This document shows, piece after piece, positions 8,451 through 57,178 of a stretch of DNA of 64,000 bases. The stretch is from Squalus acanthias. Lineage: Eukaryota. The notes beneath the pieces were generated by a model. The model was given only the letters and a program-made list of their open reading frames with translations. It had not been told where the DNA came from and did no database searches. The DNA lies in the NCBI GenBank assembly GCA_030390025.1, contig JASTWF010000033.1:4528001-4592000 (forward strand). Direction: 5' to 3'. Position 1 is the stretch's first letter; each line of letters opens with the position of its first letter. A program made the position numbers and the translations under genes.

Positions 8451-8549
8451 GACCTCATGGTATCTGGCAAGTGAGATCCCATGCACTGTGAGTTTGTGGG
8501 AACATCAGATTACAGGGCTTTGGACCAGAGAGTTGCTGGGCGGGTCTGA

Positions 8550-8866: not shown

Positions 8867-10948
8867 GTCATAGTGTCATAGAGTTATACAGCACAGAAAG
8901 AGGCCCCTCGGACCATCGTGTCCGCGCCGGCCATCAAGCCCTGTCTATTCTAATCCTATTTTCCAGCACTTGATCCGTAGCCTTGTATGCTATGGCGTTT
9001 GAATTGTTCATCTAAATGCTTCTTGACTGTTGTTCCTGCCTCTACCACCCTTTCAGGCAGTGAGTTCCAGATTCCAACCACCCCCTGGGTGATTTTTTTT
9101 CCCCCTCAAATTCCCTCTAAACCTCCTGCCCCTTAACTTGAAACTATGCCCCTGGTTATTGACCACTCTACTAAGGGGAAACGTTCCTTTCTATCTACCC
9201 TATCTATGCCCCTCATAATTTTGTACACCTCAATCAGGTCCCCCCTCAGCCTTCTCTGCTCTAAGGAAAACAACCCCAGCCTGTCCAGTCTCTCTTCATA
9301 GCTTAAGCGCTCCAGCCCAGGTAACATCCTGGTGAATCTCCTCTGCACCCTCTCCAATGCAATCACATAACTCCTATAGTGTGGCGATCAGAACTGCACA
9401 CATTATTCCAGCTGTGGCCTAACTTGCGTTTTGTACAGCTCCATCATAACTTCCCTGCTCTTGTATTCTATGCCTCAGCTAATGAAGACAAGTATCCCAT
9501 ATGACTTTTTAACCATCTTATCGACCTGTCCTGCTGCCTTCAGGGATCTATGTACATGCACACCAAGGTCCCTCTGATCCTCGGTCGTTCCTAGGGACCT
9601 ACCATTCATTGTGTACCCTTGCCTTGTTAGTCCTCCCAAAATGCATTACCTCACACTTTTCAGGGTTAAATTCCATTTGCCACTGTTCTGCCCATCTGAC
9701 CAACCCGTCTATACCGTCCTGTAGCCTGAGGCTTCCCTCCTCTTCTATTTACCACTCCACCAATTTTCGTTTCATCTGCGAACTTACTGATCATACCTCC
9801 TACATTCATATCTAAATCATTAATGTACACTACAAACAGCAAAGGACCCAGAACCGATCCCTGCGGTACACCACTGGACACAGGCTTCCAGTCATAAAAA
9901 CATCACCCTCTGCCTCCTGCCACGAAGCCAATTTTGGATCCAATGTGCCAAATTGCCCTGGATCCCATGGCTCTTACTTTCTTGACCAGTCTCCCATGCG
10001 GGACTTTGTCAAAAGCCTTACTGAAGTCCATGTAGACTACATCCACTGCACTACCCTCGTCCACACACGAAGTAAAACTCTCCAAAAATGCAATCAAATT
10101 GTTCAGACATGATCTCCCCCTGACAAAGCCATGCTGACTATCGCTGATTAATCTCGGCCTCTCCAAGTGGAGACTAATTCTGTCCCTCAGAAGTTTTTCC
10201 AATAATTTCTCTACCACTGATGTTAGGCTCACTGGCCTGTAATTCCCTGGTTTATCCCTACTACTCTTCTTGAACAATGGTACTACGTTAGCTGTTCTCC
10301 AGTCCTCTGGCACCTCCCCTGTGGCCAGAGAGGATCTGGAAATTTGTGTCAGAGCCCCTGCAATCTCCTCCCTTGCCTCACACAGCAGCCTGGGATACAT
10401 CCCGTCAGGGCCTGGGGAATTATCCACTTTTAAGCCCGCTAAAATCGCTAGTAGCTCCTCCCTCACAATACTAATTTGTTCAAGTATATCACACTCCCCC
10501 TGCCTGATTTCTATGCCTACATCGTCCTTCTCCTGAATGAACACAGATGCAAAATATTCATTTAAAACCTCACCTACATCTTCTGGCTCTACACACTCTG
10601 CCACTTTAGTCCCTAATGGGTCCTACTCTTTCCCTGGTTATCCTCTTGCCCTTAATATACTTATAAAACACCTTGGGAGTTTCCTTTATTCTGCCCGCCA
10701 GTGTTATTTCATGCCCCCTCTTCGCTCTTCTAATTTATTTTTTAAGTGCCCCCCTGCACTTTCTATACTCCTCTGGGGATCCACTGTTTTTGTCCTTTGT
10801 ATCTGCTAAAAGCCTCCCTTTTTTCCCTAATCCATTCTTGTATATCCCTTGAAATCCAGGGTTCCCTGAGTTTGTTGGTCCCACCCTTGATCTTTACGGG
10901 AACATGTTGGCGTTGTACTCTCTCCATTTCCTTTCTGAAAGACTCCCA
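8867..10948 (-). mobile_element. 5'-truncated CR1 inserted in the 18-bp minisatellite
   Basis: RT motifs in ORFs 9903..10604, 9666..9881 (FADE), 9133..9366; rc 3' tail ..CTCTATGACACTATGAC at 8867; satellite resumes at 10949. Confidence 0.93.
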
Positions 10949-11688
10949 ATTTGAGGGTCTGTATTAGTTTGAGGGGCTGTATTAGTTTGAGGGGCTGTAT
11001 TGGTTTGAGGTACTGTATTAGTTTGAGGGCCTGTATTAGTTTGAGGGGCTGTATTAGTTTGAGGGGCTGTATTGGTTTGAGGTACTGTATTAGTTTGAGG
11101 GGCTGTATTAGTTTGAGGGGCTGTATTAGTTTGAGGAGCTGTATTAGTTTGAGTGGCTGTATTAGTTTGAGGGGCTGTATTAGTTTGAGGGGCTGTATTA
11201 GTTTGAGGAGCTGTATTAGTTTGAGGTGCTGTATTAGTTTGAGGTGCTGTATTAGTTTGAGGAGCTGTATTAGTTTGAGGGGCTGTATTAGTTTGAGGTG
11301 CTGTATTAGTTTGAGGGGCTGTTTTAGTTTGAGGGGCTGTATTAGTTTGACGGGCTGTATTAATTTGAGGGGCTGTATTAGTTTGAGGAGCTGTATTAGT
11401 TTGAGGGGCTGTAATAGTTTGAGGGGCTGTATTAGTTTGAGGAGCTGTATTAGTTTGAGTGGCTGTATTAGTTTAAGGGGCTGTATTAGTTTGAGGAGCT
11501 GTATTAGTTTGAGGAGCTGTATTAGTTTGAGGTGATGTATTAGTTAGAGTTACTGTATTAGTTTGAGGGTCTGTATTAGTTTGAGGGGCTGTATTTGTTT
11601 GAGGGACTGTATTAGTTTGACGGGCTGTGTTAGTTTGAGGGGCTGTATTAGTTTGAGGTGCTTTATTATTTCATGGGGCTGTATTTAG
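10949..11688. repeat. 18-bp minisatellite block 2
   Basis: Direct tandem repeats. Confidence 0.95.
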
Positions 11689-12898: not shown

Positions 12899-13223
12899 GT
12901 AAGTGAGTATAACCATTGAATTTGTGGAAATCTGTGTGTGAGCTGGTCTCTAGTTTTGCTCTGTGACTGATAATGTTACATCCTGATCTAGTGGTCACCT
13001 TTGTACAGCGACCCGATCAGTGATAACATTTCGTTTAGTCAAATGACCTGAATTATTTCTGAGGTTTTATTCCATTGCCTCAACTGAAAGTAAAACTCTG
13101 TTTGTAACTCACGGGCTCGCTGTGTTATGATGTTATTGACTTTCTTGTAATATTGTGTACTGTTGAATCAGACCTCAGTGTAAGGAACGCTCTGAGAGAA
13201 GGTATTAGTGGAAGGGACTCTCA

Positions 13224-13857
13224 CTGTAGAACTGTACTGAGTGTGGGTCACTAACCGGAGTAGAACACCTGACCCAGTGGCCATGTATTACTGGGATTAT
13301 CTCTCACTGTAGAATTGTACTGAGTGTGGGTCACTAACCGGAGTGGAGCACCTGACCCCAGTGGCCATGTATTACTGGGAGTATCTGTCACTGTAGAACT
13401 GTACTGAGTGTGGGTCACTAACTGGAGTGGAACACCTGATCCAGTGGCCATGTATTACTGGGATTATCTGTCACTGTAGAATTGTACTGAGTGTGGGTCA
13501 CTAACCGGAGTGGAGCACCTGACCACAGTGGCCATGTATTACTGGGAGTATCTTTCGCTGTAGAATTGTACTGAGTGTGGGTCACTAAACGGAGTGGAAC
13601 ACCTGACCCCAGTAGCCATGTATTACTGGGAGTATCTGTCACTGTAGAACTGTACTGAGAGTGGGTCACTAACCGGAGTGGAACACCTGACCCCAGTAGC
13701 CATGTATTACTGGGAGTATCTGTCACTGTAGAACTGTACTGAGAGTGGGTCACTAACCGGAGTGGAACACCTGACCCCAGTAGCCATGTAATACTGGGAG
13801 TATCTGTCACTGTAGAATTGCACTGAGTGTAGGTCACTAACCGGAGTGAAACACCTA
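13224..13857. repeat. 84-bp minisatellite, ~7.5 copies
   Basis: Unit CTGTAGAACTGTACTGAGTGTGGGTCACTAACCGGAGTGGAACACCTGACCCCAGTAGCCATGTATTACTGGGAGTATCTGTCA. Confidence 0.95.
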
Positions 13858-15470
13858 TAGACTCTGGAACAGTTCCCATGGATTGGAGGGTAGCTAATGT
13901 AACCCCACTATTATAAAAAATGGTAGAGAGAAAATGGGGAATTATAGACCGGTAAGCCTGACATCGGTAGTGGGGAAAATGTTAGAGTCCATTACAAAAG
14001 ATGTAATAGCAGAGCACTTGGAAAACAGTGACAGGATTGGAAAAAAGTCAACATGGATTTACAAAAGTTAAATCATGCTTGACTAATCTACTGGAATTTT
14101 TTGAGGATGTAACTATTAGAATAGATTAGTGAGAACCAGTGGATGTAGTGTATTTGGAATTTCAGAAGGCTTTCGATAAGGTCCCGCATAAGAGATTAGC
14201 GTGCAAAGTTAAAACACATGGGATTGGGGGTAAGGTACTGTCTTGGATAGAAAACTGGTTGGCAGGCAGGAAGCAAAGAGTTGAAATAAACGGGACTTTT
14301 TCCGAGTGGCAGGCAGTGACCAGTGGGGTACCGCAGGGATCGGTGCTAGGACCCCAGTTATTCACAATATTTATCAATGATCTAGACGAGGAAACTAGAT
14401 GTAATATCTCCAAGTTTGCAGATAACACAAAACTGGGTGGGCGTGTGTGCTGTGAGGAGGATGCAGAGAAACTCAAGTATGATTTGGACAGGTTCGGTGA
14501 TTGGGCAGATGCATGGCAGATGCAGTATAATGTGGATATATGCGAGGTTATCCACTTTGGTGGCAAAAACAGGAAGGCAGATTATTATCTAAACGGCAAT
14601 AGATTGGGAAAAGGCGAAATGCAACGAGACCTGGGTGTCCCTGTGCACAAGTCGCTGAAGGTAAGCATGCAGGTGCAGCAGGCGGTTAAGAAGGGAAATG
14701 GTATGTTGTCCTTCATAGCGAGAGGATTCGAGTACAGGAGCAAGGATGTCTTGCTGCAGTTGTACAGGGCCTTGGTGAGACCACACATTGAATATTTTGT
14801 GCAGTTTTGGTCGCCTTATCAAAGGAAGGATGTTCTTGCCATGGAGGGAGTGCAGCGAAGATTCAACAGATTGATACCCGGGATGGCAGGAATGACGTAT
14901 GAAGAGAGATTGGGTCGATTGAGCTTGTATTCGCTAGAGTTTAGAAGAATGAGAGGGGATCTCATTGAAACTTATAAAATTCTAACAGGACTAGACAGAC
15001 TAGATGCAGGAAGGATGTTCCCGATGGTGGGGGAGTCCAGAACCAGGGTTAACAATCTAAGGATAAGGGGTAAGCCATTTAGGACTGAGATGAGGAGGAA
15101 TTTCTTCACCCAGAGAGTGGTGAACCTGTGGAATTCTCTACCACAGAAGACAGTTGAGTCCAATTCATTAAATATATTCAAGAAGAAGTTAGTTATATTT
15201 CTTAAGGCTAAGGTGATCAAGGGATATGGGGAGAAAGTAGGGACAGGGTCCTGAATTTGGATGATCAGCCATGATCGCATTGAATGGCGGTGCAGGCTCG
15301 AGGGGTCGAATGGCCTACTCCTGCTCCTATTTTCGATGTTTCTATCCCAGTGGCAGGAAACGGCTATTGAGGTCGATGATCAGCCATGATTTTATTGAAT
15401 GGCGGAGCTGGTTCGAGGGGCCGAATGGGCTACTCCTGCTCCTATTTCTGATGTTCTTATGTTCATATAT
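13858..15470 (+). mobile_element. CR1 (5'-truncated, RT to 3' end) followed by a second CR1 3' tail
   Basis: ORF 14139..15254 (371 aa) with [17 protein letters not shown]1 C-terminus. Confidence 0.95.
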
Positions 15471-24030: not shown

Positions 24031-24374
24031 ATCAGAATTAAAGCAGTCTCCGTATTTTGCATTTGCTCATATACTTCCGCCTGGATATTAAGAGAGGCGG
24101 GTTATGTACGATGTCCGGAGGGTACAGGGTGGATGTGCAATATCAGACAGGATACCAGGAAGTCCAGCTATTCCCAAACGTTGGGGTGTCTTAACTCCAC
24201 AGCATACGTCCTTTCTCCTTGATTGGTTCCCCACCCCGGAAGTCAGCCTGATTGACAGTCGGGCTTCCAGTCGGTTGGGGTGGGGGGACTCCGGAGCAGG
24301 ACCAGGTAGGTCGGATGGATGAAACCGGGTTGGATGGGGCGTCTGATCCCGTGATGTGTCCGATTAAGGACAAG

Positions 24375-26645
24375 GGGATTTGACCTGTCCCGGGGTGTGT
24401 GACCAATCCCCGGGGGTTTGAACGGTTCTGGGACATTGACTGGTCCCGGGGGATTGACCGGTCCCGGGAGTTTGACCGGTCCCGGGGGTTTGACCGGTCC
24501 CGGGGGTTTGACCTGTCCCGGGAGTTTGACCGGTCCCAGGAGTTTGACCAGTCCCGGGAGTTTAACCGCTCCCTCGGGTGAGACCAGTCCCGGGGGTGTG
24601 ACCGGTCCCGGGGGTTTGAACGATCCCGGGGGTTTGACCAGTCCCAGGGGTGTGACCGGTCCCGGGGTTTGACTGGTCCCGGGGTTTGACTGGTTCCAGG
24701 GGTTTGGCCGGTACCGGGGGTTTGGCCGTCCCGGGGGTTTGATCGGTCCCGGGGTTTGACTGGTTCCGGGGGTTTGACCTGTACCGGGGGTTTGACTGGT
24801 TCCGGGGGGGTTGACCAGTCCTGGGGTTTTCACCGGTCCCGGGGGTTTTGACCGGTCCCAAGTGTGTGACCGGTTCCGGGGGTTCGACCGGTACCGGGGG
24901 TTTGACCGGTCCAGGGGGTTTGACCGGTTCTGGGGATGTGACGGTCCCAGGGGTGTGACCGGTCCCGGGGGTGGGACTGATCCCGGGGTTTTGACCGGTC
25001 CCGGGGGTTTGACCAGTCCCGGGGTTGTGACCGGTCCCGGGGGTTTGACTGGTCCGGGGGGTTTGACCAGTCCCGGGGGTGTGACCAGTCCCGGGGGTTC
25101 GATCAGTACCGGGCGTTTGTCTGGTCCTGGGGATTGACTGGTCCCGGGGGTTTGACTGGTCCCGGTGGTTTGATCTGTCCTGGGGGATTGACCAGTCCAC
25201 GGGGTGTGACCGAACCCGTGGGTTTGACTGGTCCCTTGGGTGTGACCGGTCCCGGGGGTTTGACCGGTCCGGAGGGGTTGACCAGTCCCAGGGGGTTGAC
25301 CGGTCCCGGGGGTTTGACCAGTCCCGGGGGGTTTGACCAGTCCTGGGGGTTTGACCGGTCCCGGGGGGTTGACCGGTCTTGGGGGGGTTGACCGGTCCTG
25401 GGGGTTTGACCGGTCCCGGGGGTTTGACCGGTCCCGGGGGTTTGACAAGTCCCGGGGGTTTGAGCAGTCCCGGGGGTTTGACTGGTCCCGGGGGTTTGAG
25501 CAGTCCCGGGGGTTTGACCAGTCCCACGGGTTTGACCAGTCCCGGGGATGTGACCAGTCCCGGGGGGTTGACCAGTCCCGGGGGTTTGATCGGTCCCGGG
25601 GGTTTGACCAGTGCCGGGGTTTGACCAGTTCCGGGGTTTTGACCCGTCCCTCGGGTTTGACCAGTCCCGGGGGTTTGACCAGTCCCGGGGGTTTGACCTG
25701 TCCCGGGGGTTTAACCAGTTCCAGGGGTTTGAACAGTCCTGGGGGTTGTGATCTGTCCCGGCGCTTTGACCAGTCCCGGGGGATTGACCTGTCCTGGGGG
25801 TTTGACCAGTCCCGGGGGTGTGACCAGTCCCAGGGGTTTGACCAGTCCCGGGGGTGTGACCAGTCCCAGGGGTTTGACCAGTCCCGGGGGATTGACCTGT
25901 CCTGGGGGTTTGACCAGTCCCGGGGGTGTGACCAGTCCCAGGGGTTTGACCGGTCGCGGGGGTTTGACCATTCCCGGGGGATTGACCAGTCCCGGGGCTT
26001 TGACTGGTCCCAGGGAATTGACCGGTCCCGGGGGTTTGACGTGTCCTGGGGGGTTTGACCGGTCCCAGGAGATTGACCGGTCCCGGGGGTTTGACCGTTC
26101 CTGGGGGGTTAGACTGGTCCCGGGGGTTTGACTGGTCCCGGGGGTTTGACCGTTCCCGGGGGTTTGACCAGTCCTGGGGGTTTGACCAGTCCCGGGGGTC
26201 GGACCAGTCCCGGGGGTGTGACCGGTCCCACCGGATGTACCAGTCCCGGGGGTTTGATCGGTCTCGGGGTTTTGACCAGTGCCGGGGGTTTGATCGGTCC
26301 CGGGGGTTTGACCAGTCCCGGGGGTTTAACCGGTCCCGGGGGTGTGACCTGTCCCAGGGGTTTGACCAGTCCTGGGGGTTTCACCAATCCCGGGGGTTTG
26401 ACCAGTCCAGGGGGTTTGACCGGTCCCTGGGGGTTGTCTAGTTCTGGGGCTTTGACCAGTCCTGGGGTGTGTGGCCGCACCCGGGGGTTTGACCGGTACT
26501 GGGGGTATGACTGGTCCCGGTGGTTTGACCGGTCCCGGGGGGTTGACCGGTCCCGGGAGTGTGACCGTTCCCGGGGTTTTTACTGCTCCCAGGGGGTTTG
26601 ACCAGTCTTGGGGGTTTGACCGGTATCGGGGGCGTGACCAATCCC
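24375..26645. repeat. GC-rich ~18-bp minisatellite (GGGGGTTTGACCRGTCCC)n, ~125 copies
   Basis: Direct tandem repeats. Confidence 0.96.
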
Positions 26646-33850: not shown

Positions 33851-34211
33851 TTTATATTTTCGTACCAAAGTGCATCACCTCGCATTCATCGATGTATGTT
33901 TTCTAATTCCTATTGTGAGATGTCATGTAGAGAAATGTATCTTCAATATTTGAAGCAAATTATCAGTTTATTGAATAAAAAACAATAATAATAAATAAAG
34001 GCAACCATCCACAACTGTGTGTGGTTTTGCAATGTTATCAGAAAATCTGAGGATTTATTGCAGAGTAAACTCCTGGCTTGTCACATTGTACTAATGCTTT
34101 TGGAAGAAGTTGGCGAAGATATAATTTATTACAATCAACAGAATTGCTCTTCTGTATGCTTCTGCCTCACTTTCTAACTTTCGAAATCTATTTATGCATC
34201 GAACATCCTAA

Positions 34212-36405
34212 ACCCCACCCCACTCCACCTAATATCCTCAGCTCCTCCCCACCCCACCTAATATCCTCAGCTCCTCCCCACCCCACCTAATATCCTCAGC
34301 TCCTCCCCACCCCACCTAATATCCTCAGCTCCTCCCCACCCCACCTAATATCCTCAGCTCCTCCTCACCCCACCAAATATCCTCAGCTCCTCCTCACCCC
34401 AACTAATATCCTCAGCTCCTCCCCACCCCAACTAATATCCTCAGCTCCTCCCCACCCCACCTCATATCCTCAGCTCCTCCACACTCCACCTAATATCCTC
34501 AACTCCTCCCCACCCCACCTAATATCCTCAGCTCCTCCTCACCTCACCGAATATCCTCAGCTCCTCCCCTCCCCACCTAATATCCTCAGCTCCTGCCTCC
34601 CCACCTAATATCCTCAGCTCCTCCCCACTCCACCTAATATCCTCAGCTCCTCCCCACCCCACCTAATATCCTCAGCTCCTCCCCACCCCACCTAATATCC
34701 TCAGCTGCTCCCCACTCCACCTAATATCCTCAGCTCCTCCCCACCCATCTAATATCCTCAGCTCCTCCCCACCCACCTAATATCCTCAGCTCCTCCCAAC
34801 CCACCTAATATCCTCAGCTCCTCCCCACGCCACCTCATATCCTCAGCTCCACCCCACCCCATCTAATATCCTCAGCTCCTCCCCACCCCACCTAATATCC
34901 TTAACTACTCCCCACCCCACCTAATATCCTCAGCTCCTCCACACCCCAACTAATATCGTCAGCTCCTCCGCATCACACCTAATATCCTGAGCTCCCAACC
35001 CACCCCATCTAATATCCACAGCTCCTCCCCACCACACATAATATCCTCAGCTCCTCCCCACCCCACCTAATATCCTCAGCTCCTCCCAACCCCACCTAAT
35101 ATCCTCAGCTCCTCTGCACCACACCTAATATGCTCAGCTCCTCACCACTACACCTAATATCTCAGCTCCTCCCGACCCCACCTAATATCCTCAGCTCCTC
35201 TCCATCCTACCTATTACCCTCAGCTCCTCACCACCCCACCTAATATCCTCAGCTCCTCCTCACCCCACCTAATATCCTCAGCTCCACCCCACCCCACCTA
35301 ATAACCTCAGCTCCTCCTCACCCCACGTAATATCCTCAGCTCCTCCTCATCCCGCCTAATATCCTCAGCTCCTCCCCAGCCCAACTAATATCCACAGCTC
35401 CTCCCCACCCCACCTCATATCCTCAGCTCCTCCCCACCCCACCTAATATCCTCAGCTCCTCCCCACCCCACCTAATATCCACAGCTCCTCCCCACACCAC
35501 CTAATATCCTCAGCTCCTCCCCACTCCACCTAAAATCCTCACTCCACCCCCCCCCCACCTAATATCCTCAGCTCCTCCTCACCCGACCTAATATCCTCAG
35601 CAACTCCCCACCCCACCTAATATCCTCAACTCCTCACCACCCCACCTAATATCCTCAGCTCCTCCCCACCCCACCTAATATCCACAGCTCCTCCCCACCC
35701 CACCTAATATCCTCAGCTCCTTCCCACTCCACCTAAAATGCTCAGCTCCACCCCACCCCACCTAATGTCCTCAGCTCCTCCCCACCTCACCTAATATCAT
35801 CAGCTCCTCCCCACCCCACCTAATATCCTCAGCTCCTCCCCAACCCACCTAATATCATCAGCTCCTCCCCATCCTACCTATTACCTTCAGCTCCTCCCCA
35901 CCCCAACTAATATCATCAGCTCCCCCCACCCCACCTAATATCCTCAGCTCCTCCCCACAACACCTAATATCCTCAGCTCCTCCACACCCCACCTAATATC
36001 CTCAGCTCCTCCCCACCCCACCTAATATCCTGAGCTCCTCCCCACCCCACCTATTATCCTCAGATCCTCCCCACCCCACCTAATATCCTCAGCTCCTCCC
36101 CACCCCACCAATATCATCAGCACCTCCCCACCCAACCTAACATCGAAAACTTCTACCAACCCTCACCTGTAATCCACAGCTCCTCCAGAATTCAACCAAT
36201 ATACTGAGCTCCTCCCCACCATACCTAATATCCTCAGCTCAACCCCACCCCAACTCATGTACTCAGCTCCACCCTACCCCACCTAATATCCACAGCTCCT
36301 TCCCAACCCACATAATATCCTCAGCTTCTCCCCAGCTCACCTAATATAATCAGCTCTTCCCCAAACCACGTAATGTCCATTGCTCACTCCCCACCCAAAC
36401 TAATT
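34212..36405. repeat. 29-bp C-rich minisatellite (CCTAATATCCTCAGCTCCTCCCCACCCCA)n, block 1
   Basis: Direct tandem repeats. Confidence 0.96.
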
Positions 36406-44240: not shown

Positions 44241-44935
44241 CTCAGCTCCTCCCCACCACACCTAATATCCTCAGCTCCTCCCCACCCCATCTACTATCCT
44301 CAGCACCTCCCCACCCCACCTAATATCCTCAGCTCCTCCCCACCACACCTAATATTCTCAGCTCCTCCCCACCCCATCTAATACCTTCAGCTCCTCCCCA
44401 CCCCACCTAATATCCTCAGCACCTCCCCACAACACCTAATATCCTCAGCTCCTCCCCACCCCATCTAATATCCTCAGCTCCTTACCACCCACCTAATATC
44501 CTCAGCTCCTCTCCACCCCACTTAATATCCTCAGCTCCTCCCCACCCCACCTAATATCCTCAGCTCCTCCCCACCCCACCTAATATCCTCAGCTCCTCCC
44601 CACCCCACATAATATCCTCAGCTCCACCCCACCCCACCTAATATCCTTAGCTCCTCCCCACCCCACCTAATATCCTCAGCTCCACCCCACCCCAATTAAT
44701 ATCCTCAGCTCCACCCCACCCCATCTAATATCCTCAGCTCCTGCCCACCACACCTAATATCCTCAGCTCCTCCCCACCCCACCTAATATCCTCAGCTCCT
44801 CCCCACCCCACCTATTATCCTCAGCTCCTCCACACCCCACCTAATATCATCAGCTCCTCCCCACCACACCTAATATCCTGTGCTCCTCCCCACCACACCT
44901 AATATCGGCAGCTGCTCCCAAATCCACATACTATC
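44241..44935. repeat. 29-bp minisatellite block 3
   Basis: Direct tandem repeats. Confidence 0.95.
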
Positions 44936-45964
44936 TGAAGAGATCGCAAAGTCTCTGTTTGAAGAATGGACTCAGTCGAGAATATTTTTTGGACTTTATG
45001 GGATTTTTCTGAGGGTACTTTCCCTGTGATGGGATCACCCTGTGTTACTATGTGAAAAACTGGTTTGTTAAAACTCCAGAGAACGCATGGCAGTTGGCTG
45101 TGACAAAACAACTGTCAGTCATCCAGAATATGAAAAATCCCTTCTCACCTCCATCTCAGAAGAGTAGCAGACCAATGAACCCACTGGCCTAGCCAGCCGG
45201 AGAGGAGCCAGTTTTGCAAAACACAAAGACCGAAATATATCCCAGACTTAGGGCCATTGGTCCAATCACGGAGTACACATGGGTTTGAGGATGACCCATC
45301 AATGATTCAGCACCGGAGTGTTTCGAAACAAAAGGATTTTAATGATTGGCGTGAAAGATAGGTGTAGCAAGACTCCTATAAAGATAGATACTTTCCCACC
45401 ATTCTCTCTCTCTCTCTCGCTCTCGCTGCACCAAGATCTACCTAACATTAAGACCAGAGGAAGAAGCAGCTAATAGGAGCGATCGAGACCGACTGCATGT
45501 GGGGGTAAGCATGGTCTAGAGTGTCCCAAGCCGGTAACCAGTGGGCTGAGTTTTTCTCAGAAGTGAAGTTTTTGGGCTATTCCGAGGGTGGGAGCTTCCT
45601 TTGGTTCAGCCAGGCGAAGGGGCTTATGCGACTGGGTAATTCGTTGGTAGGGGTGGAATTAGAGTCCACCATAGCAACACTGGAAATACTGCATTTTATA
45701 GTCCCCAGTTTGTACTGTATGTTTGTTGATTGTAACCTGGATTTTATTCTCCACAGAGACAATGATTTCGTTTAGTAGTGCACGTTTTAGCCAGTTTATG
45801 TTAGACCAAATAAATATAAGTTTGATTTTTCGCTGAAGCATTCCTGTCCTTGAATTATTTCATTTACACTCTGAATAATAATTCCCGGGTATAGAACTTT
45901 CGTAAGGCGGGGGCGATTGGAACCGTCCATCTAGCAATTGGGCTAGGATCAAAAACCGCTTACA
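44936..45964 (+). repeat. 5' LTR (1029 bp)
   Basis: TGAAGAGATC...AAACCGCTTACA, homologous to 55324-57178; TATAAA 45377, AATAAA 45809. Confidence 0.93.
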
Positions 45965-45969
45965 TCACT

Positions 45970-45987
45970 TGGCGACCGCGGCAGGAC
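45970..45987 (+). promoter_or_regulatory. primer binding site, tRNA-Arg(TCG)
   Basis: TGGCGACCGCGGCAGGAC is the reverse complement of GTCCTGCCGCGGTCG-CCA, the vertebrate tRNA-Arg(TCG) 3' end as recalled. Confidence 0.85.
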
Positions 45988-46013
45988 CTGGGTTAAAGGA
46001 GTGTAAATCAGTC

Positions 46014-47693
46014 ATGGACAGCGCTTCTGGCGAAAGATCCCAAATGGAGGAAAGGATTTCTTCATATGTGTTTAAGAAGGTTAACGTCACTAAGAAGTGG
46101 GTGCTAGGCTGGTTGCGTGCTGAGCGTCCGGTGGACGCAGTGGCAGAATGGACGGAGGGCAAGGAGCAGAGGCGCAGCATTGAAAAGGCGATATGGCTCA
46201 TCTGTCGACAAAGACAAGTCCAACTGCTAAATAAGCAGGTTGCGAGATTAGAGGCAGAGCTCAGGGAGTCCGAGGCACAGTCAGACGCAAGGGTTGTAGT
46301 AGGGAGCAGGTTATGCACGGAGCCAAGGGATGAGAAGTCGGGAAATATAAGGCAGGAGAAAACCTTCCGTAACCATAAGGTGTTCCTGCAATGCCAGGTA
46401 ACTGAGGCAAAGGGGAACGAGAGGATGGTTAGGGAGAAGAACGCTCGCTTGTCGAGTGAGGTAAAGGTGCTGGGAGAGCAGTTGAAGGATATTCAGGTGG
46501 CATACAGAGACGCCAGCACTAGAGGGTTTGATACGGGTAATCATGGTCCTGGCCAGGAGCAGATCCGGAATTTGACCGATGCTCTATCTAAGGCCCAAGG
46601 GATGGTCTCCTTGGTAGCTGCGGGAATGGCCCGGGTAGATGAGGAAGAGCAGGTGGGAGATAAGGAGGACTGTGAGGTACAGGAGGACGCTCGACCACCG
46701 CCCGAAGTGCCGGGACCAGGACCCATGTGCCCTGTCCGGCAGCGGAAATACGGTGCGCCCGTAGACGGTCAAGAGCAAGGAGCACTGCAGAGTGACTTCG
46801 TGGTCCCGTATACGACACCCCAGCTGCAGGCAATGGTCTCTAACCTGACCAAACTGACCAGCACAGGGGACCCATCTGTCCATTTTACGGATGTGGAGCA
46901 GGTGGGGGGGATCAATAATTGTAACCAAGCTGAGACAGACAAATTACTTCTATTTTCCCTGGATAGTAGGTTGTACCAGTCGCTCTCAGCGGGTAGCAAG
47001 AGGGGGCAGGGTACGTTAGAGGGGATAAAGGATGACATCCTAGAGGCTATGGGCCTCAGTGATGAAAGTCCCTTCTCCCGAGTGGAAAGGACACTGCAGT
47101 CAGCTGGGGAGGCACCGCAGGCTTTCGCGGACAGGCTTTGGACCGTCTACCGGAGTGCCTGTGCGGGGGTGCCCGACCGGGCGCAGCTGCAGGGGGAGCC
47201 TAGGGCTCATTGGCTGAGGACCCTGGTGGCGAACAGCCTGCCCAGGATCAAGGCCAAAGCAGAGGGGTGGTTCGATTCCAGGGATCCCCAGACCACAGAA
47301 GTGAGGGTGATCCGGCAGTTAACTCTCTCTTTGAAGAATGGTAGGGGTGAGGATGACAAACCAAAGGGCAGAGTACACGAGTTAAAGCCTAGTGGAGGCA
47401 ACGTTAGAAGAGAGTGGCGCCAGGAAGGGGGTAGCTCAGAGAAGAAGCAGGGTTGTTATGTGTGCGGGAGTAAAGGGCACTGGAGGAAAGACTGCCCAGT
47501 CTCTGACAAAAGGAGCGGGAAAGGGGATCCTCCAGCTCCAGTGCAGAAAGCCGCAGCTGTGGCAGGAAGCAGCACTGATCCGTTCGCGGTATTAGTGGCT
47601 GTTCTCCGCGCAGTGTTTCCGGCAGGGCAGGGTAGGGTGGACACGGCAGCGGGCAGCGTACTCCCATCCGCCCCGAACAATCCCGACCGATGA
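46014..47693 (+). CDS. gag: Gag polyprotein (coiled coil, Pro-rich segment, CCHC zinc knuckle)
   Basis: Open ~559 codons from ATG 46014; CYVCGSKGHWRKDC. Confidence 0.88.
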   Translation: MDSASGERSQMEERISSYVFKKVNVTKKWVLGWLRAERPVDAVAEWTEGKEQRRSIEKAIWLICRQRQVQLLNKQVARLEAELRESEAQSDARVVVGSRLCTEPRDEKSGNIRQEKTFRNHKVFLQCQVTEAKGNERMVREKNARLSSEVKVLGEQLKDIQVAYRDASTRGFDTGNHGPGQEQIRNLTDALSKAQGMVSLVAAGMARVDEEEQVGDKEDCEVQEDARPPPEVPGPGPMCPVRQRKYGAPVDGQEQGALQSDFVVPYTTPQLQAMVSNLTKLTSTGDPSVHFTDVEQVGGINNCNQAETDKLLLFSLDSRLYQSLSAGSKRGQGTLEGIKDDILEAMGLSDESPFSRVERTLQSAGEAPQAFADRLWTVYRSACAGVPDRAQLQGEPRAHWLRTLVANSLPRIKAKAEGWFDSRDPQTTEVRVIRQLTLSLKNGRGEDDKPKGRVHELKPSGGNVRREWRQEGGSSEKKQGCYVCGSKGHWRKDCPVSDKRSGKGDPPAPVQKAAAVAGSSTDPFAVLVAVLRAVFPAGQGRVDTAAGSVLPSAPNNPDR

Positions 47694-50600
47694 CTAGGGG
47701 CTTCTCAGCCCGTTTACCTGTGCCCACTAAGATATGATGCTTGGAAGAGACCGTGCGTGAAGATGGGGGTGGAGAAGATGCAAAGGACCTATCTGCTGGA
47801 CACTGGAGCTTCAAGCACCATTGTCTATGCGGATAACCCGACCACAGCACCTCTATCGTGTGGGGTCCCATATAACTTAGTAGAGTTCACCAGGAACGAA
47901 CAGGCTGGGTCTTTCTCCATCCCACTAGCCATCGATCTGGGTACACTCCGTACGGAGTGGAAATGTGTCCTGATGGGGTGGGAGCGGGAGGGATAGGCAT
48001 TCTGGGGGCAGACTTCATACTGGCCCACAAGATATTGGTGGATTTTCGGAATCACTGTCTTTGGGGGGCAGTATGCACGGGAAAGGAGAAGGAGGTGGCA
48101 GTTATACCAGGGAAGCAAGGCAAGGGAACCGTGTGTACGATGAAGACCAAGGATAGTTATGACCTTGAACTTTTGGTCACTTCTACCCCAGCGGAGTACA
48201 TAGCGGATGTACGAGCCAACCTCACGGCATTCGCTACACACAAGCACGACTGTGGGAGGGTAATCGGGGTGGAGGTCAGAGTAGAAGGAGACCCCATGGC
48301 CCAACCACAGAAACAGTGCAACTTCCCCAGAGAGGCAGAGGCGGATTTAGAGATGGCATTTGGATCATTGGTTGAGCAGGGTGTGTTGGGACCCATAGCG
48401 ACCCATGTGAACTCTCCGATTTGGCCAGTTAGGAAACTGGACAATTCGTGGAGAGCCACTGTGGACTATCGGGTTCTTAACAAGAACATCCTAGGCCTGT
48501 GCCCCCACCATTGCAGCCGTAGCCGACCTGATCGGGAGTATCCCGGCATCCGCAAAAACATTCACGGTGCTGGACATTTCGAATGGATTCTGGTCTATCC
48601 CTCTCAAAAGGGAGGACCAGTATAAATTCGCATTCACTTTCAAGGGTCAGCAGTACACATGGACCTGCCTCCCCCGAGGGTTTCATAACTGTCCTTCTAT
48701 TTTCCACCAATATATGGCCAACTGTTTAAAAGGGTTTAGCAGACCGCAGCAGCTTGTACAGTACGTGGACGACCTGTTTTTATTCTCCAACGAGGGGGAG
48801 GAGAATGGCCCCCTGCTGGCTGAGCTGCTGAGTCTGTTAAAGGAAGCTGAGTTCAAGGTTAATCCCAAGAAAGCACAGATCGGCCAGCAGGACGTAAAAT
48901 TCCTCAGGCTGACCATGCGTACTGGGGAGAGGGCCATCGATGAGGCGAAAAGGAAGGCGGTACAGGAGCTACCTGCCCTGACCACGATAACGGAGGTAAG
49001 CTCCTTCCTGTGACTCAGAGGGTATTGCAGGTATTTCATAGAGGACTATGCCACTACGGCAGCTCCTCTACTCCGGCTCCTTCACAAGGGAGTGGGATGA
49101 GGACTGCATGGCAGCTTTTAGTCGTCTGTAGAGAGATTTGCAGACCGCACCGGCTTTAGGAGCGTTGATGGGGGAAAGGAGTTATTTTTGGAGGTAGCTG
49201 CCACAGGGGACAGTTTGAGGGCAGTGCTGCTCCAGGAGCGGCATGGCAAGCTGAGGCCTGTGGTATACTCATCAAGAATCCTCACAGATGTAGAGAGGGG
49301 GTACTCCAATTGTGAGAGGCACCTGCTTGCCACACATTGGGCCGTGAGGAGATCACAAATCTTCACGGGAGCGTCCCCGTTAACTCTCTTAACCCATCAT
49401 ACGCCCACTCAGATGCTTCTGGATGGGAGGATAAAGGACGGCACGGTGAGCAGTGCACGCATTGCTCGCTGGACTTTATTGCTCTCTCAGACGAATTTGA
49501 GTGTGAAAGGCCTCTGTGAGCCTAAGCTCCCCGCAAATTTGATCTACCGAGTGGTGGCCCACAAATGTTCTGTTGAATGGGTATGGGACGTAGACATAGG
49601 GTTTCGGGCTGGGATCCATGTAGACGGGTCCAGTACAGTGGTGGCAGGGGAGCAACTCACTGGATGCGGGATTTTTGACCCAAAGGCAGGCATTGCCAAG
49701 ACCATTAAACTCCTGAGCACCATGAGCGCCCAGCACGCTGAACTGTAGGCGGTGGTGTTTGTGTTTACTCAGCCCGAAGTGTACCCTACACCCTATACTA
49801 TTCACTTGCAATTTGTGGACAGAATATTTAGCCATTTGGTCTCGTCGTGGGTTCACATCTGCAGACGGGAAACCCCTAGCAACAAAGCCATTGTTGCAAC
49901 AGATCATAACATCGATAGGAACCCAGGGGGATTTCTATATCCACAAAGTCAAGGCCCATTCAAAGGCGGAACCCCGTGCGGAGGGCAATCAGCAGGCCAA
50001 CGTGATGACCAAAGAGGGTGCTCGAACGGGCACGTTTTGGGATCCATATGGGTCGAGTCAGGTAGCAGCGATCAGAGACAGAGGTGGGGCCTAAGCGCGT
50101 GCAGGGGTAGCATTGGCACCGGACCTAAAGATGGTCCAGGCACGGGATCCCGTCATAAAGACTGTTCTGGAGACGTTGGCTTAGGGAGATAAGGTAGAGC
50201 GTCCATACGGAGTGGCAGGTATCTCGCTAAATACGTAGTACCATTATTAAAGAAGGGTAGTAGGGATAAACCATGGAATTACAGGCCAGTGAGCCTGACA
50301 TCAGTGGTAGGGAAATTATTGGAAAAAATTCTGAGGGACAGAATTAGTCTCCACTTGGAGAGGCAAGGATTAATCAAGTATAGTCATCATGGCTTTGTCA
50401 GGGGGAGATCATGTCTAACCAATTTGATTGAGTTTTTCGAGCGGGTGACTAGGTGTATGGATGAGGGTAGTGCAGTTGATATAGTCTGCATGGACTTCAG
50501 TAAGGCTTTTGACGAAGTCCCGCATGGGTGACTGGTCAAGAAGGTAAAAGCCCATGGGATCCAGTGCAACCTGGCACATTGGATCCAAAATTGGCTTAGT

Positions 50601-52987
50601 GGCAGGAGGCAGAGGGTGATGGTCGAAGGTTGTTTTTGTGACTGGAAGCCTGTGTCCAATCGTGTACGGCTAGGATCGGTGCTGGGTCCTTTACATTAGT
50701 GTAGTGTACATTAATGATTTAGATATGAATGTAAGAGGTATGATCAGTAAGTTCGCAGATGACACGAAAATTGGTGGGGTGGTAAATAGCGAGGAGGGAA
50801 GCCTCAGGCTACAGGACGGTATAGACGGGATGGTTAGATGGGCAGAACAGTGGCACATGGAATTTAACCCTGAAAAGTGTGAGGTGATGCATTTTGGGAG
50901 GACTAACAAGGCAAGGGAATACATAATGAACGGTAGGGCCCTGGGAAGGACAGAGGATCAGAGGGACATTGTTGAGCATGTACATAGATCCCTGAAGGCA
51001 GCAGGACAGGTAGATAAGGTGGTTAAAAAGGCACATGGGAAACTTGCCTACATTAACCGAGGCATAGAATATAAGAGCAGGGAGGTTATGATGGAGCTGC
51101 ACAAACCGCAAGTTAGGCCATAGCTGGAATAATGTGTGCAGTTCTGGGTGCCACACAATAGGAAGGATGTGATTGCATTGGAGAGGGTGCAGAGGAGTTT
51201 CACCAGGATGTTACCTGCGCTGCAGCGCTTCAGCTATGAAGAGAGACTGGACAGGCTGTGGTTGTTTTCCTTAGAGCAGAGAAGGCTGAGGGAGGACCTG
51301 ATTGAGGTGTACAAAATTATGAGGTGCATAGATAGGGTAGATAGAAAGGAACTTTTTCCCCTTATTAGAGGGGTCAATAACCAGGGGGCATAGCTTCAAG
51401 GTAAGGGGCAGGAGGTTTAGATGGGTTGAGGAAAAACTTTTTCACCCAGAGGGTGGTTGGAATCTGGAACTCACTGCCTGAAAGGGTGGTAGATTGAGGA
51501 ACCCTCACAGCATTCAAGAAGCATTTAGATGAGCACTTGAAATGCCATAGCGTACAAGGCTACGGACCAAGTGCTGGAACATGGGATTAGAATAGACAGG
51601 GCTTGATGGCCGGCGTGGACACGATGGGCCGAAGGGCCTCTTTCTGTGCTGTATAACTCTATGACTCTATGACTCTATGACTCTAAAGGAAGGGACGGTT
51701 TTCAGAGGGGAACAGTGGGCAGTTCAGCAGCAGCACCGGAGACAATTCCTTCAGTTGGCCCAGGAGGGTCCAGGAGCGGGGCACCCCGGGCCGGAGACCA
51801 CCTGGCAACGGGTGAGGGAGGACGTCCGCGACTTCTGCACGGATTGCTTGGTGAGTGCTGCAAACAACTCTGACACCCCAAAAAAGGAAGGTATCCATGG
51901 GACACACTAGGAGAGTGGAGGGACCATGGCAGTCCATACAGGTCGATTATATCGGACCGCTGCCCACCGCGCAGCGGGGTTACAAGTACTGCCTGGTCCT
52001 TGTGGATGTGTTCTCTCAATGGGTAGAAGCCTTCCCATGCCGAACAGCCACAGCTTTGTGGACCGCAAGGATTGTAGTGAGAGAAGTGTTCTCTCGGCTA
52101 CCATGGTATGTGGAGTCCGATCAGGGGAGTCACTTCACAGCGGCAGTCATGCAGGCGACTCTGAAGATCTAAGGTGTAGAGGGTAAATGGCACGTCGCAC
52201 ACAACACGCAGTCATCTCGGATTGTGGAGCGGATGAATAGGACCATCAAGGATAGGTTACGGAAGGAGACGGGAGACTCGCCTAGAAAATGGGCGGTTGT
52301 CTTGCCGTTAGTTCTGATGGGTTCCGAGCCAGCCCGTCCAGAAGCACAGGGTATTCCCCGTATGAGCTCCTGACTGGCAGGATCATGAGAACGCCCAGCC
52401 ATGTACTGGCCCCGGTTCTCACGGAAGGTCAGTTGAGAGAGGTGAACCGGGACAGGTTTGTTAAGAATTTGTTTGAGCATCTCAGACAGATCCATTGGCA
52501 GGCTGCCAGTAACATGGGGAAGCAACATCGTAGAAATCGTTTATTGCTTGAGCCTCAGAGGCAACACGAGTGGAAGGTCGGAGATCAAGTAATGGTTAGA
52601 AACTTCGCCAAGGTAGGGACTTTTGAACCGCTATACATGGGACCGTACAGTATTGTGGATAGTGCAAGTCCGATGGTATATGCGATCAAAATGCCTCGAC
52701 GCACCAAGTGGTTCCATATCAATCAGTGCAAGCTTTTCAACCCTGGGGAAAGAGCTGATAAGAGGAGGAAACAGCAGGGAGTGTTGAGCTGCGCTACAGG
52801 TGTGGGACTCCAGCCCATAATCTGGGACTGTGAGGAGCCCACAGAGGGACCAGTCGTTCCGCCTGTGGGGACTGGAGTGAGAAGGAGTGCCAGGATCCCA
52901 CGGCCGAGGGTGCCGTGGACGCCTCCTTACACACCGTTGAACGATGGAAGCCGGAGTTGTAAGAGGCCCAGGGTCGAGGAGACCTAG
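47694..52987 (+). pseudogene. pol: pol (PR-RT-tether-RNase H-IN) with multiple stops/frameshifts and a CR1 insertion
   Basis: LLDTGAS..ILGADF; NSPIWPVRK, LDISNGFW, LPRGFHN, QYVDDL; RPVVYSSR..YSNCERHL; HVDGS..SAQHAEL..KVKAH..GNQQAN; QVDYIGP, SDQG, IVERMN; GPY. Confidence 0.93.
50232..51682 (+). mobile_element. 5'-truncated CR1 inserted in pol (IN N-terminal region)
   Basis: RT ORFs 50289..51393; (GACTCTAT)n tail; CTAAA on both sides (50227-31, 51683-87); removal restores AGISLKEGTVFR. Confidence 0.93.
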
Positions 52988-53187: not shown

Positions 53188-54450
53188 ATGAATTCAGCCA
53201 TGGTAGTCCTGAGCGTCATGATTGAAGACAGCGAGAGTCACAGGGGCGACACCGAGGAATCGGTTATCTTCGGCTGCACCGGCGGAGACGGACCGACCGT
53301 GACCACTGGAGGTGGCTCGAAGGATGGGGCGAGCGTCTATCTCCACGAGGGAAGATGGCTTGGATGGCTGGGGTCGAATTCCACCCGGTATTCCAGCCAT
53401 GACAAGTACACCTATGGTGAAGCGTCCATCCCATGCCCGAGAATAGGGGTTACCACCTCCCGGGTTAGGGTAACAGAGGGCAAACGGGTGTGCCTTAGCT
53501 GTAGGGGACACATTCCACTGGGAAGGTGGTGGTGGCTCAGGAAACTGAGCGTGGATACAGGGGACCAGACAGCTGACTGGGAAAGACTAAGTAATGACAC
53601 GTACCGGACGATCACAGGTTCTCAGGGAGGAGTAAATGTGTGTTGGGATAAGTGGTGGGAATCCGAGGAAGGGTTATATGTGTGTATGTGGGGGTCGGAA
53701 AAGATCTGCCCAGCGGGTGTGTCGATGGCGTTTAGCAGGACACCGGGGGTGGGATCGGTTGGGATCGGAGTGTGGACTCTTGTGTGATCCCCAAACCCCC
53801 GATAACAATCAACGCCACAGAGCTCATCTCATACACCAGGAAGCCCCCGCCCAGAGCCCCGACGGTACAGACGACTGTCGATGGGTGTCCCACCACCACC
53901 AGGGGTCCAGGGAATGGGTTGGTGTTAATCCCGACTGACAAAGTGTTGTTTCAGAACGTGCTCTACGCCGTGGCATGAGTGACCCTGAACCTGACTGAAG
54001 TCCACCTGCCTGTGTGGTGTCCAAGGAAGACGGAGAAGCTTTATGAAGCTCTGTTAAAAGCGATGTTACAGAATTTTTTTGAACTGGACCATGGACATGT
54101 AGAGAAAGAATAGCTTTATAATCTGAATGTTGGGGACAGTGTGGGGTCCGGGAGTCAGAGAAGAGGGAGCTGGAAAAATTCCTTTTCTGCCGGAACATCT
54201 CACTGAGTTAATAAAGACCGCTGAACTCTCCCAGAAACATTTTTACACTTTGGAGCAAAAGACAGTAGAAGTCGGGAAGGAGATCAGGGGGATTGTCTCA
54301 CCACCATGGTGGGATATCGGTCTGAGTATAGAGATTCCTCCCTGGATCCGCATCTGTTCCCATGCATTAGTTATCATACAATTGTTGCTTGTAAGCTACT
54401 TGTTCTACACCAGCTACAGGCGATGGTTCCAGATGCTCCGAGCGCGGTGA
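53188..54450 (+). pseudogene. env: env-like gene: Ig-like domain, Thr/Pro linker, fusion-protein-like part (internally deleted), TM anchor
   Basis: Lies between IN and PPT; acceptor TCTTTTCAG at 53161-69 before ATG 53188; C-terminal hydrophobic ALVIIQLLLVSYLFY followed by RR. Confidence 0.78.
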
Positions 54451-54579: not shown

Positions 54580-55047
54580 CTGTATTGTGCGATGTGCACT
54601 GTTGCATTTTTGTAATGAGTTACCACCTGTCAATGCTGTATTGTGTGATGTGCGCTGTTGTATTTTTGTAATGTGTTACCACCTGTCAATGCTATACTGT
54701 GCGATGTGCGCTGTTGTATTTTTGTAATGTGTTACCACCTGTCAATGCTGTACTGTGTGATGTGCGCTGTTGTATTTTTGTAATGTGTTACCACCTGTCA
54801 ATGCTGTACTGTGTGATGTGCGCTGTTGTATTTTTGTAATGTGTTAACACCTGTCAATGCTGTACTGTGTGATGTCCGCTGTTGTATTATTGTAATGTGT
54901 TACCACCTGTCAATGCTGTACTGTGTGATGTGCGCTGTTGTAATTTTGTAATGTGTTACCACCTGTCAATGCTGTACTGGGTGATGTGCGCTGTTGTGTT
55001 ATTGTAATGTGTTACCACCTGTCAATGCTATACTGTGTGATGTGCGC
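54580..55047. repeat. 56-bp tandem repeat (8 full copies plus a partial one) in the element's 3' UTR
   Basis: Unit CTGTACTGTGTGATGTGCGCTGTTGTATTTTTGTAATGTGTTACCACCTGTCAATG with exact 56-bp period. Confidence 0.95.
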
Positions 55048-55312
55048 GGTGACTTTTTGGTAACGTCCTGTGGATCTTATTAATTTTCTGTAGTTTGACT
55101 TGAAGTTTGTCGGTGGGAGTTGGAACCCAGCCATTTGAATGTGTTCAGAAGCCGTTTCGCTGATGTTTTGAGTCGGTAGAAGGGAACTATGACACGCAGT
55201 AAGGGGGTACAGCTCTGGGGTTAAAATGTAAAATCAGGGAAACAGCTTCACTTGTGGGAGACTTTGGCCTTTGCTCTCTCATCGAGTGATGCTTTGTGGA
55301 AAGAACAGCATC

Positions 55313-55323
55313 AAACGGGGGAC
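55313..55323 (+). promoter_or_regulatory. polypurine tract
   Basis: AAACGGGGGAC directly before the TG of the 3' LTR. Confidence 0.7.
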
Positions 55324-55545
55324 TGAAGAGATCACAAAGTCTCTGTTTGAAGAATGGACTCAGTCGAGAATATTTTGTAGACTTTATGGGATTTTTCTGA
55401 GGGTATTTTCCCTGTGATGGGATCACACTTTGCAGATATGTGAAAAAGTGGTTTGTTAAAACTCCAGAGAACACATGGCAGTTGGCTGTGACAAAAGAAC
55501 CGTCAGTCATCCAGAATATGCAAAAGCACTTCTCACCTCCATCTC

Positions 55546-55737
55546 GCAGAGATGCCGGCGTTGGACTGGGGTGGACAAAAAAGAGAAGTCGCGCAACACC
55601 AGGTTATAGTCCAACAGATTTATTTAAAATTACAAGCTTTCTGAGCTATCGCCCCTTCTTCAGGTAAAGTTACAATGTTAATTTTAAATAAATCTGTTGG
55701 ACTATCACCTGGGGTTGTGCGACTTCTCATTTTTGTC
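55546..55737. mobile_element. short Penelope pLTR fragment with internal inversion
   Basis: Matches 62370-62498; flanked by duplicated CACCTCCATCTC. Confidence 0.85.
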
Positions 55738-55978
55738 CACCTCCATCTCAGAAGAGAAGCAGAACAATGAACCCACTGGCCTAGCCAACCGGAGAGGAGC
55801 CAGTTTTTCCCAACACAAAGACCGAATTATGTCCCAGACTTAGGGCTATTAGTACAATCACGGAATACTCATGGGTCTGAGGATGACCCATTACTGATTA
55901 AGCACCGGAGCACTTAGAAACAAAAGGATTTTAAAGATTGGCAGGAAAGATAGGGATAGCAAGACTCCTATAAAGATA

Positions 55979-56553
55979 TGATGCGGAGATGCCGGTGTTG
56001 GAAGGGGTGGACAAAAGTGAGAAGTCGCACAACACCAGGTTATAGTCCAACAGTTTTGTTTGAAATCACAAGCTTTCAGAGCGCTGCACCTTCGTCAGGT
56101 GAAGTGAAGGAATACGAATCGGCAAAGCATATATAGACAGAGAACAATGCCTGTGTAGCGTACAATGTCAGACGACTACAGTTAATCTATCTGACTGCAT
56201 TTCATCACACCTCGGCAGAGAAAGAATCAGGTCAGCCAGGAAGGCACCACATCAAAGACATAGCAAGATACAACTAAGACAATGAGATGGGATCACAGGG
56301 GGTCTAATGTGTCAAAAGTAGTCTGTATGGAAAACCATAAACTTTAAAATGTTTACTTTTTTTTTACTGGAAATCACATCTGTGAACAAGCCAACGACGA
56401 CTCGAGTCTGGATGACTCTACGTCATGTAGCATGACATGAACCCAAGATCCCGGTTGAGGCCGTCCTCATGGGTGCGGAACGTGGCTATCAGTTTCTGCT
56501 TGATGATTTTGCGTTGTCGTGTGTCTCGAAGGCCGCCTTGGAGAACGCTTCAT
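55979..56553 (-). mobile_element. Penelope 3' fragment (GIY-YIG C-terminus plus pLTR)
   Basis: Reverse complement of ~61930-62499; TSD CTATAAAGATA (55968-78, 56554-64). Confidence 0.88.
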
Positions 56554-57178
56554 CTATAAAGATAGATCCTTTCCCACCATCTCTCTCTCTCTGTCTCTCT
56601 CTCGCCCCAAAAAGATCGACCTAACAAGAAGTACCAGAGAAAGAAGCAGCTAAGTGGAGCGATCGAGACCGACTGTGTGCGTGTGGAGGTAAGCATGGTC
56701 TCGAGTGTCCCAAGCCGGTAAACCAGATATCCCAGGCGAGCTGGGTGATTTGTAAAGAGCTGAGAGTTTCTCAGAAGTGAAGCTTTTGGGCTATTCTGAG
56801 GGTGGAGCTTCCTTTGTTTCAGCCAGGCGAAGGGGCTTATGCGACTGGGTAATTCGTTGGTAGGGGTGGAATTAGATTCCACCATAGCAACAAGGGAATT
56901 ACTGCTTGTCATAGTCCTCAGTTTTGTACTGTATGTATGTTGTTTGTAACCTGGATTTTATTCTCCACAGAGACAGTGATTTCGTTTAGTAGTGCACGTT
57001 TTAGTGAGTATATGTTAGACCAAATAAATATAAGTTTGATTTTTCACCGAAGCATTCCTGTCCGTGACTTATTTTATTTACACTCTGAATAAAAATTTCC
57101 GGGAAAAGAACTTTCGTAAGGCGGGGGCGATTCGAACCGTCCATCTAGCTGTTGGGCTAGAATCAAAAACCGCTTACA

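Follow-up and report, generated by a model that had tools for sequence, protein, structure and literature searches.

We found that the window, a stretch of 64 kb from the 3.7-Gb genome of Squalus acanthias, contains an endogenous retrovirus (ERV) whose env begins with a segment that is probably (we put it at about 0.6) the N-terminal Ig-fold head of a cartilaginous-fish Env, likely snakehead retrovirus (SnRV)-like; in intact copies, this head likely binds the receptor for a predicted F-type fusogen carried on the same chain. Each half of such a protein is known separately, and their combination, an Ig head on an F-type Env, is new. A search of the openly accessible literature, with subscription papers outside its scope, turned up no F-type Env reported to carry an Ig head at its N-terminus.

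The element has the layout of an LTR retroelement, with the following features in window coordinates:

44935..45964, + strand, 5' LTR (start approximate), matching both sister-copy LTRs and the window 3' LTR at 86-92%
45970..45987, + strand, primer-binding site for tRNA-Arg(UCG), complementary to the 3' end of the tRNA-Arg(tcg) genes of the host
45906..47693, + strand, gag ORF with a CCHC knuckle (zf-CCHC, E 4e-6); an in-frame stop precedes pol
47694..52987, + strand, broken pol with the Pfam domains RVP, RVT_1, RT_RNaseH, RNase_H, Integrase_H2C2, and rve
50232..51675, + strand, LINE-type insertion within pol, seen as a gap versus a sister copy and by LINE-like RT ORFs, with copies elsewhere in the window
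53188..53433, + strand, env start: signal-peptide-like hydrophobic segment, then a Gly/Cys-containing N-terminal segment (low model confidence)
53434..53736, + strand, predicted Ig-fold (V/I-type) domain with a Cys105/Trp116/Cys166 core and extra conserved Cys
53737..53903, + strand, Thr/Pro-rich stalk, in a frame that differs from that of the Ig here and in frame in natural copies
53904..54167, + strand, F2-like subunit from GPGNGLVL to a basic cleavage site, with in-frame stops at 53976 and near 54111
54168..54177, + strand, junction of a 1,022-nt deletion; fusion peptide, HRA, and F1 core are gone
54178..54450, + strand, F1 remnant: HRB heptads, Trp-rich membrane-proximal segment, transmembrane helix, and tail
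54580..55083, + strand, 56-nt tandem repeat (family D7) in the 3' untranslated region
55323..57178, + strand, 3' LTR split by an insertion, placed by sister-copy comparison

The order of the pol domains, as recognized by Pfam, is protease, RT, tether (a degenerate RNase H), second RNase H, and integrase, and a candidate splice acceptor (a pyrimidine tract followed by AG) lies directly upstream of the env start. This copy is old, its LTRs being 86-92% alike. gag and pol share one frame with a single stop between them (47691-47696), in the window as well as in younger copies, which points to stop read-through. The tandem arrays of the 3' untranslated region vary by sub-lineage, with a 56-nt unit in the window and a 47-nt unit in others (e.g., L100). 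Elsewhere, the window holds many scattered LINE fragments and minisatellite arrays at 3249-5781, 8413-11400, 13202-13861, 24356-25900, and 34100-35700, with units of 86-90, 18, 84, 18, and 29 nt, respectively.

The env ORF (ATG at 53188, stop at 53785-53787, 199 aa) carries the Ig motifs at the V-set-like spacing that the original prediction had described, namely, VRVTEGKRVCLSC at 53464-53502, WWW at 53527-53535, and EEGLYVC at 53665-53685. The spacing of Cys105, Trp116, and Cys166 (11 and 61 residues) is canonical for Ig domains, and the three residues are kept in at least 90% of 14 aligned rows. Only 2 of 20,000 shuffles matched the motif pattern, a flattering figure since the pattern was devised post hoc from the sequence itself. 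Pfam Ig_3 matched the window ORF under threshold (E 0.024, 15.6 bits versus a cut-off of 30) and was also found in 9 of 15 relatives with E values of 0.003 to 0.6, the best relative reaching 18.6 bits. Sequence searches of the PDB with Ig-head sequences gave no significant match, the top rows being the Ig domains of CRTAM and VEGFR3 (E 0.2-0.6). The fold emerges from the structural model instead. An AlphaFold model of the segment, built with 14 aligned natural sequences, had a mean pLDDT of 53.5, with core blocks at 66 to 81, and every Foldseek row listed for it was an Ig chain (best E 4.1e-4). VIA-align gave a Z of 9.6 with an rmsd of 2.3 to 3.0 over 94 to 98 residues, and only 107 of 48,161 chains reached a Z of at least 8; V domains and the I-set domains of titin and NCAM were within 1 Z of each other. 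The segment is therefore predicted to fold as a V/I-type Ig domain, as had been proposed. The VIA alignments begin at residues 31-32, which suggests that the sandwich includes a strand from the N-terminal part, with a long insertion in between; pLDDT in that part is below 50. Two N-glycan sequons are found inside the Ig and one ahead of it.

The original prediction spoke of a captured Ig and looked for its nearest donor in the host Ig superfamily (IgSF). Identity is 13-22% in the top Foldseek rows and 8-22% over all structural matches, and for this reason, a host donor cannot be named; Foldseek, VIA-align, and Atlas found none, and the best Atlas score for the head (0.90, FLT3/V-set clusters) is a lead only. 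IgNAR was considered as donor and rejected: it tops the Foldseek rows at 13-19% identity, is level with other Ig domains in VIA-align, and provides no evidence of origin. That the domain was captured, we infer; that it is fused to a fusogen in a single ORF can be read directly in natural copies other than that of the window.

Among the 20 copies closest to the window element, the Ig motif and NGLVL share one ORF in seven, and three are open from the Ig through the TM region; locus L021 has one ORF of 708 aa with Ig, F2, cleavage site, and F1. The clearest picture comes from a young, related family (family B; the window element belongs to family A), from which we took the first 69 of 149 matches with the same F2. 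All parts were in one ORF in 49 of these 69 copies, and 48 were gapless at 783 codons, with basic cleavage site, fusion peptide, heptad repeats, and TM in the same ORF, so that the joining of Ig and fusion parts expected from the window is confirmed in these relatives. The 783-codon layout comprises a signal peptide (1-17), an N-terminal segment (18-83), the Ig (84-185), the stalk (186-243), F2 (244-330) ending in RQRR, and the F1 core (331-661), followed by HRB, a Trp-rich segment, and TM. The fusion-peptide region is mildly hydrophobic (KD 0.55). In the mapped elements, for which ORFs of at least 150 to 200 aa were listed, the stretch from env to the 3' LTR showed no further glycoprotein ORF. 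The one RNA run yielded 0 mapped reads, and contigs from three runs guessed as RNA cover env, with no leader-env joint among the matches listed; neither result decides anything on expression.

Family B (e.g., L060-L088 and L119-L158) is very young and of high copy number, with about 6,100 candidates, of which three contigs by themselves supply 149 further matches at 99% in F2; its LTR pairs are 99.2-100% identical, and it has 4-nt target duplications.

The original prediction also took GPGNGLVL as the start of the fusion-like part, and this agrees with the published lokiretrovirus (Loki) Envs, which, in the accessible text of the report, begin with GPxxG(I/L)VL right after the signal peptide (PMC7947760). 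The F part of a natural copy (L025), modeled from a 39-row alignment at a pLDDT of 68, matched the F proteins of hPIV3, Langya, RSV, Nipah, and NDV, with hPIV3 F as the best (E 6.4e-11) and 239 chains at an E of 0.001 or less; in BFVD, it matched lispivirus, baculovirus F, and paramyxovirus models. These matches have high rmsd values and TM-scores of 0.2 to 0.4, as expected for a monomer model of a two-state protein. At the level of profiles, Pfam Fusion_gly had no match in any sequence scanned, and there was one Baculo_F match (E 0.0011). The fusion part is thus predicted to be of the paramyxovirus F type, with nested domains and long HRA and HRB helices. The Envs of walleye epidermal hyperplasia virus 1 and walleye dermal sarcoma virus in BFVD also matched the F model (mea262d939f6d; E 1.5e-9 and 2.3e-6, low TM-scores), which hints that some epsilonretrovirus Envs may be F-type too.

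Regarding the retroviral placement, the Pols most similar to that of the element are "NYNRIN-like" proteins of frogs and coelacanth (41-45%). In an RT tree of 34 rows, the Pols of the element grouped with those frog and coelacanth Pols and with three retroviral Pols (support 100/99), apart from Ty3/gypsy rows and from P0086, the sole Loki-type row, so called by eye against published Loki RTs. SnRV was not among the 34 rows; by hand count, RT identity is 69/132 (about 52%) to SnRV and about 45/132 to Loki-Str. The element does have Loki traits, such as the tether and second RNase H in pol (by Pfam) and the predicted F-like Env. Despite this Loki-like F body, membership in the lokiretroviruses was ruled out by the RT grouping and the start of the Env. 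A fish foamy-like ERV was also discarded, the RT of ZFERV-2 fitting worse by eye (17 versus 25 of 53 in the first block). The CmiFLERV/XtrFLERV group may be an alternative placement. From the RT comparisons, the element is likely SnRV-like (clade Huo). The window element uses tRNA-Arg(UCG) as its primer, and the primer of SnRV may be a tRNA-Arg too. Genes for tRNA-Arg(UCG) and tRNA-Ser(GCU) form long tandem arrays with a 1.62-kb unit at 39.0-42.2 Mb of one contig (G000:C26:39.0-42.2 Mb; L183 and L185), and there were 426 pattern matches genome-wide.

Searching 1.84 billion proteins with a profile yielded 53 matches. The 20 that were looked up are of shark, frog, or coelacanth origin, from one eel, or unnamed; the closest named Env relatives are from skate and sharks. 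Full-length relatives have 155 to 243 residues ahead of the F2 start, with the exception of coelacanth P0059, which has 27 and is headless. The heads fall into groups (the window family with P0005; P0021; P0025 with P0052; the P0042/P0081 tail, weakly with P0054; and P0020, P0032, and P0040), with alignment z values of 20 to 150 within groups and of at most 5.2 between them. Profile-profile comparison of the heads gave alignments confined to the F parts. P0025 and P0052 share a homologous head, yet a clade of their F parts was rejected (p-AU 7e-5, for a group named after inspection of a tree with long branches). Considering the head groups, the headless P0059, and this lack of an F clade, heads were replaced or lost more than once. 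P0021 has the UniRef name "Ig-like domain-containing". The frog heads are suggested to be Ig as well: the P0042/P0081 tail head matched V-set (E 0.045) and Ig_3 (E 0.012), both under threshold. Across frog heads, Ig profile matches were sub-threshold or absent, and two profile searches yielded no clear Ig match. These comparisons of primary sequence suggest that the head is an exchangeable module whose most probable role is receptor binding.

P0020, P0032, and P0040 (Mustelus, Pristiophorus, and Chiloscyllium) have a different, Cys-rich N-terminal head, which neither Pfam nor Atlas nor alignment connected with the Ig head; the missing Atlas match of the P0020 head shows neither novelty nor absence. 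In several database entries (P0008, P0013, P0014, P0039, and P0081), gene predictors spliced env pieces onto ZFP2-like, Niban-like, cadherin-related, and fbxo15 genes and onto a frog Pol. These fusions are probably annotation artefacts, and exonisation may be another explanation.

Polymorphism among the 48 gapless family-B copies (mean 97% alike) shows that the head is maintained. The piN/piS ratio is 0.07 for the Ig and 0.06 for the F1 core, whereas the stalk, the N-terminal segment, and the signal peptide have ratios of 0.20, 0.31, and 1.1, respectively. Since copies were selected by their identical F2 and open frames, the ratio is meaningless for F2 and somewhat low elsewhere, but Ig and F1 can be compared fairly. 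Across families, identity is 56-63% in the Ig (dN 0.25-0.33, dS saturated), 73-81% in F1, and 36-53% in the stalk. Purifying selection of this strength means that the Ig is a working part of the viral protein and no passenger, although it shows need and not function. Shared variants in the Ig (4 nonsynonymous versus 19 synonymous) give no diversifying signal, unlike many receptor-binding domains. The singleton env variants of family B are under purifying selection too (omega 0.2), which suggests spread by reinfection.

If the head binds a receptor, furin cleavage would leave Ig-stalk-F2 as a surface subunit held on F1, with the stalk raising three Ig heads off the trimer. The head would bind a host surface protein by an IgSF-type contact, the virion would dock, and F1 may then refold, so that the Ig would perform in cis the task that HN/H/G has for paramyxovirus F. 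By analogy, this receptor-binding role, one of the two offered by the original prediction, is likely. The Ig lies N-terminal of a Pro/Thr stalk, the position of the MLV RBD, and at least five head groups with little or no mutual alignment, plus one headless Env, match the pattern of the exchanged RBDs described in the main text of Hotzel (bioRxiv 10.1101/2024.03.17.585361). However, F-type Envs also work headless, as in P0059 and in the four Loki Envs, out of 23, that were compared (PMC7947760), all of which start at F2, and the missing diversifying signal also argues against a receptor-binding head.

These same two points favor the other role originally offered, immunomodulation, or else shielding: the head would be an IgSF mimic that engages an inhibitory receptor, or it would cover the prefusion trimer as a glycosylated cap, with entry receptor binding located in the F part. 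The sequons in and before the Ig also fit this role, and the SIRP-like head of Env-Dbi, which retains CD47-contact residues (bioRxiv 10.1101/2024.03.17.585361, main text), is a precedent for either. We regard it as unlikely, considering that the Ig resembles no particular host immune receptor and that position and swapping of the head match the behavior of RBDs. Less likely still is that the Ig holds F in the prefusion state as a folding or stability module with no ligand: its constraint equals that of F1, and several extra conserved cysteines could link head and body, but a faster-evolving Pro/Thr stalk of about 58 residues separates Ig and F2, and unrelated heads take the place of the Ig in relatives.

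The copy in the window cannot make a fusogen. Compared with two sister copies, 10 nt are missing near 53734, shifting the frame after the Ig; the Thr/Pro linker (53796-53903) and GPGNGLVL (53904) are present in the order originally read but are out of frame with the Ig. F2 has two in-frame stops, and through the 1,022-nt deletion, the cleavage site now abuts the HRB-TM remnant, so the fusion peptide and an in-frame F1 core are absent. Of 30 family-A loci selected for their F2 similarity, 12 have this deletion. Over 31 copies, its size by anchored counts (L116 left out for having no anchor; L031 and L032 gave no row) is 1,022 nt in 22, 1,023 in 8, and 1,024 in 1; it is out of frame in 23 of the 31, window included, and the sizes indicate that it was probably out of frame from the outset. 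The window copy is thus dead, and it belongs to a sub-lineage in which the fusion core was lost and which likely spread with no working Env of its own. That the deleted form (Ig-stalk-F2 with no fusion core) was kept as a functional receptor-blocking decoy, presumably akin to Fv4/Refrex, is very improbable: the lineage was amplified, and family B does have independent in-frame F1 deletions with open ORFs (963 and 951 nt), of which two are from very young elements with LTRs 99.9-100% identical, but those cases were picked for their long ORFs, none of the 69 family-B copies picked by F2 is so deleted, and together with the frame counts and the frameshift and stops of the window copy, this largely rejects the idea.

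The receptor-binding reading can be set beside known systems. Contrary to the original prediction, it is not unusual as such for a retroviral Env to have an N-terminal Ig on a Pro-rich stalk: the MLV/FeLV RBD is a modified IgV, and Env-Dbi captured a SIRP IgV. Like the shark protein, these gamma/alpha-type Envs (MLV/FeLV RBD-C, Env-Pb1, and Env-Dbi) have an N-terminal IgV-like domain, a Pro-rich linker, and the fusion machine behind, and heads have been exchanged between lineages. They differ in that the shark body is predicted to be F-type rather than gamma-type SU/TM, the shark head has no recognizable host donor, and canonical B-F cysteines are present in the shark Ig, unlike in RBD-C. The gamma/alpha-type Envs are as described in the main text of Hotzel (bioRxiv 10.1101/2024.03.17.585361), where "shark" and "fish" appear 0 times; its supplements could list fish Envs. 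Lokiretrovirus Envs (Wang and Han, PMC7947760, in part) share the F-like body, furin site, GPxxG(I/L)VL start, and dual RNase H in pol, and differ in the headless cases noted above and in the RT, the shark one grouping away from the Loki-type sequence. Five chondrichthyan genomes in the table of that report are not marked as Loki-positive. SnRV-like ERVs (clade Huo, CmiERV lineage I) are known from the elephant shark and all major vertebrate lineages in the accessible text of PMC4422223 and PMC6001957; the likeness to them is that of the RT over 132 positions, and the related Envs and Pols of our element come from sharks, frogs, and coelacanth. The foamy virus Env also combines an F-type fusion core with its own RBD on the same chain, but that RBD is an inserted novel fold and not an N-terminal Ig (PMC11468914). 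Paramyxovirus and pneumovirus F proteins share the F-type core, whereas paramyxovirus F relies on a separate attachment protein, and the Ig-fold domain II inside F is another domain than the shark Ig head. A 2024 cryo-EM paper on foamy viruses may survey fish Envs. Further related literature includes PMC13524379, PMC9040795, PMC12440569, PMC8672886, PMC11521997, PMC5512871, PMC4977317, PMC12193657, and PMC13709493.

A broader view, which we hold tentatively and consider rather doubtful as a whole, is that of a widespread, unrecognized Env class in the SnRV-like retroviruses of sharks, frogs, and coelacanth, in which an F-type fusogen of the paramyxovirus kind would have acquired host IgSF domains as receptor-binding heads, by capture or swapping, several times and independently, with one shark family very recently reinfecting the germ line. 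The finding joins the F-type Envs of basal retroviruses (Loki, foamy) with the exchange and capture of Ig RBDs in gamma/alpha Envs, and the Ig head borne by the F protein itself illustrates a way for F-type fusogens to find cells with no separate attachment protein. The little-studied SnRV-like clade gains a structural description, and the Ig, as a small and separable domain, provides a handle for seeking a fish retrovirus receptor.
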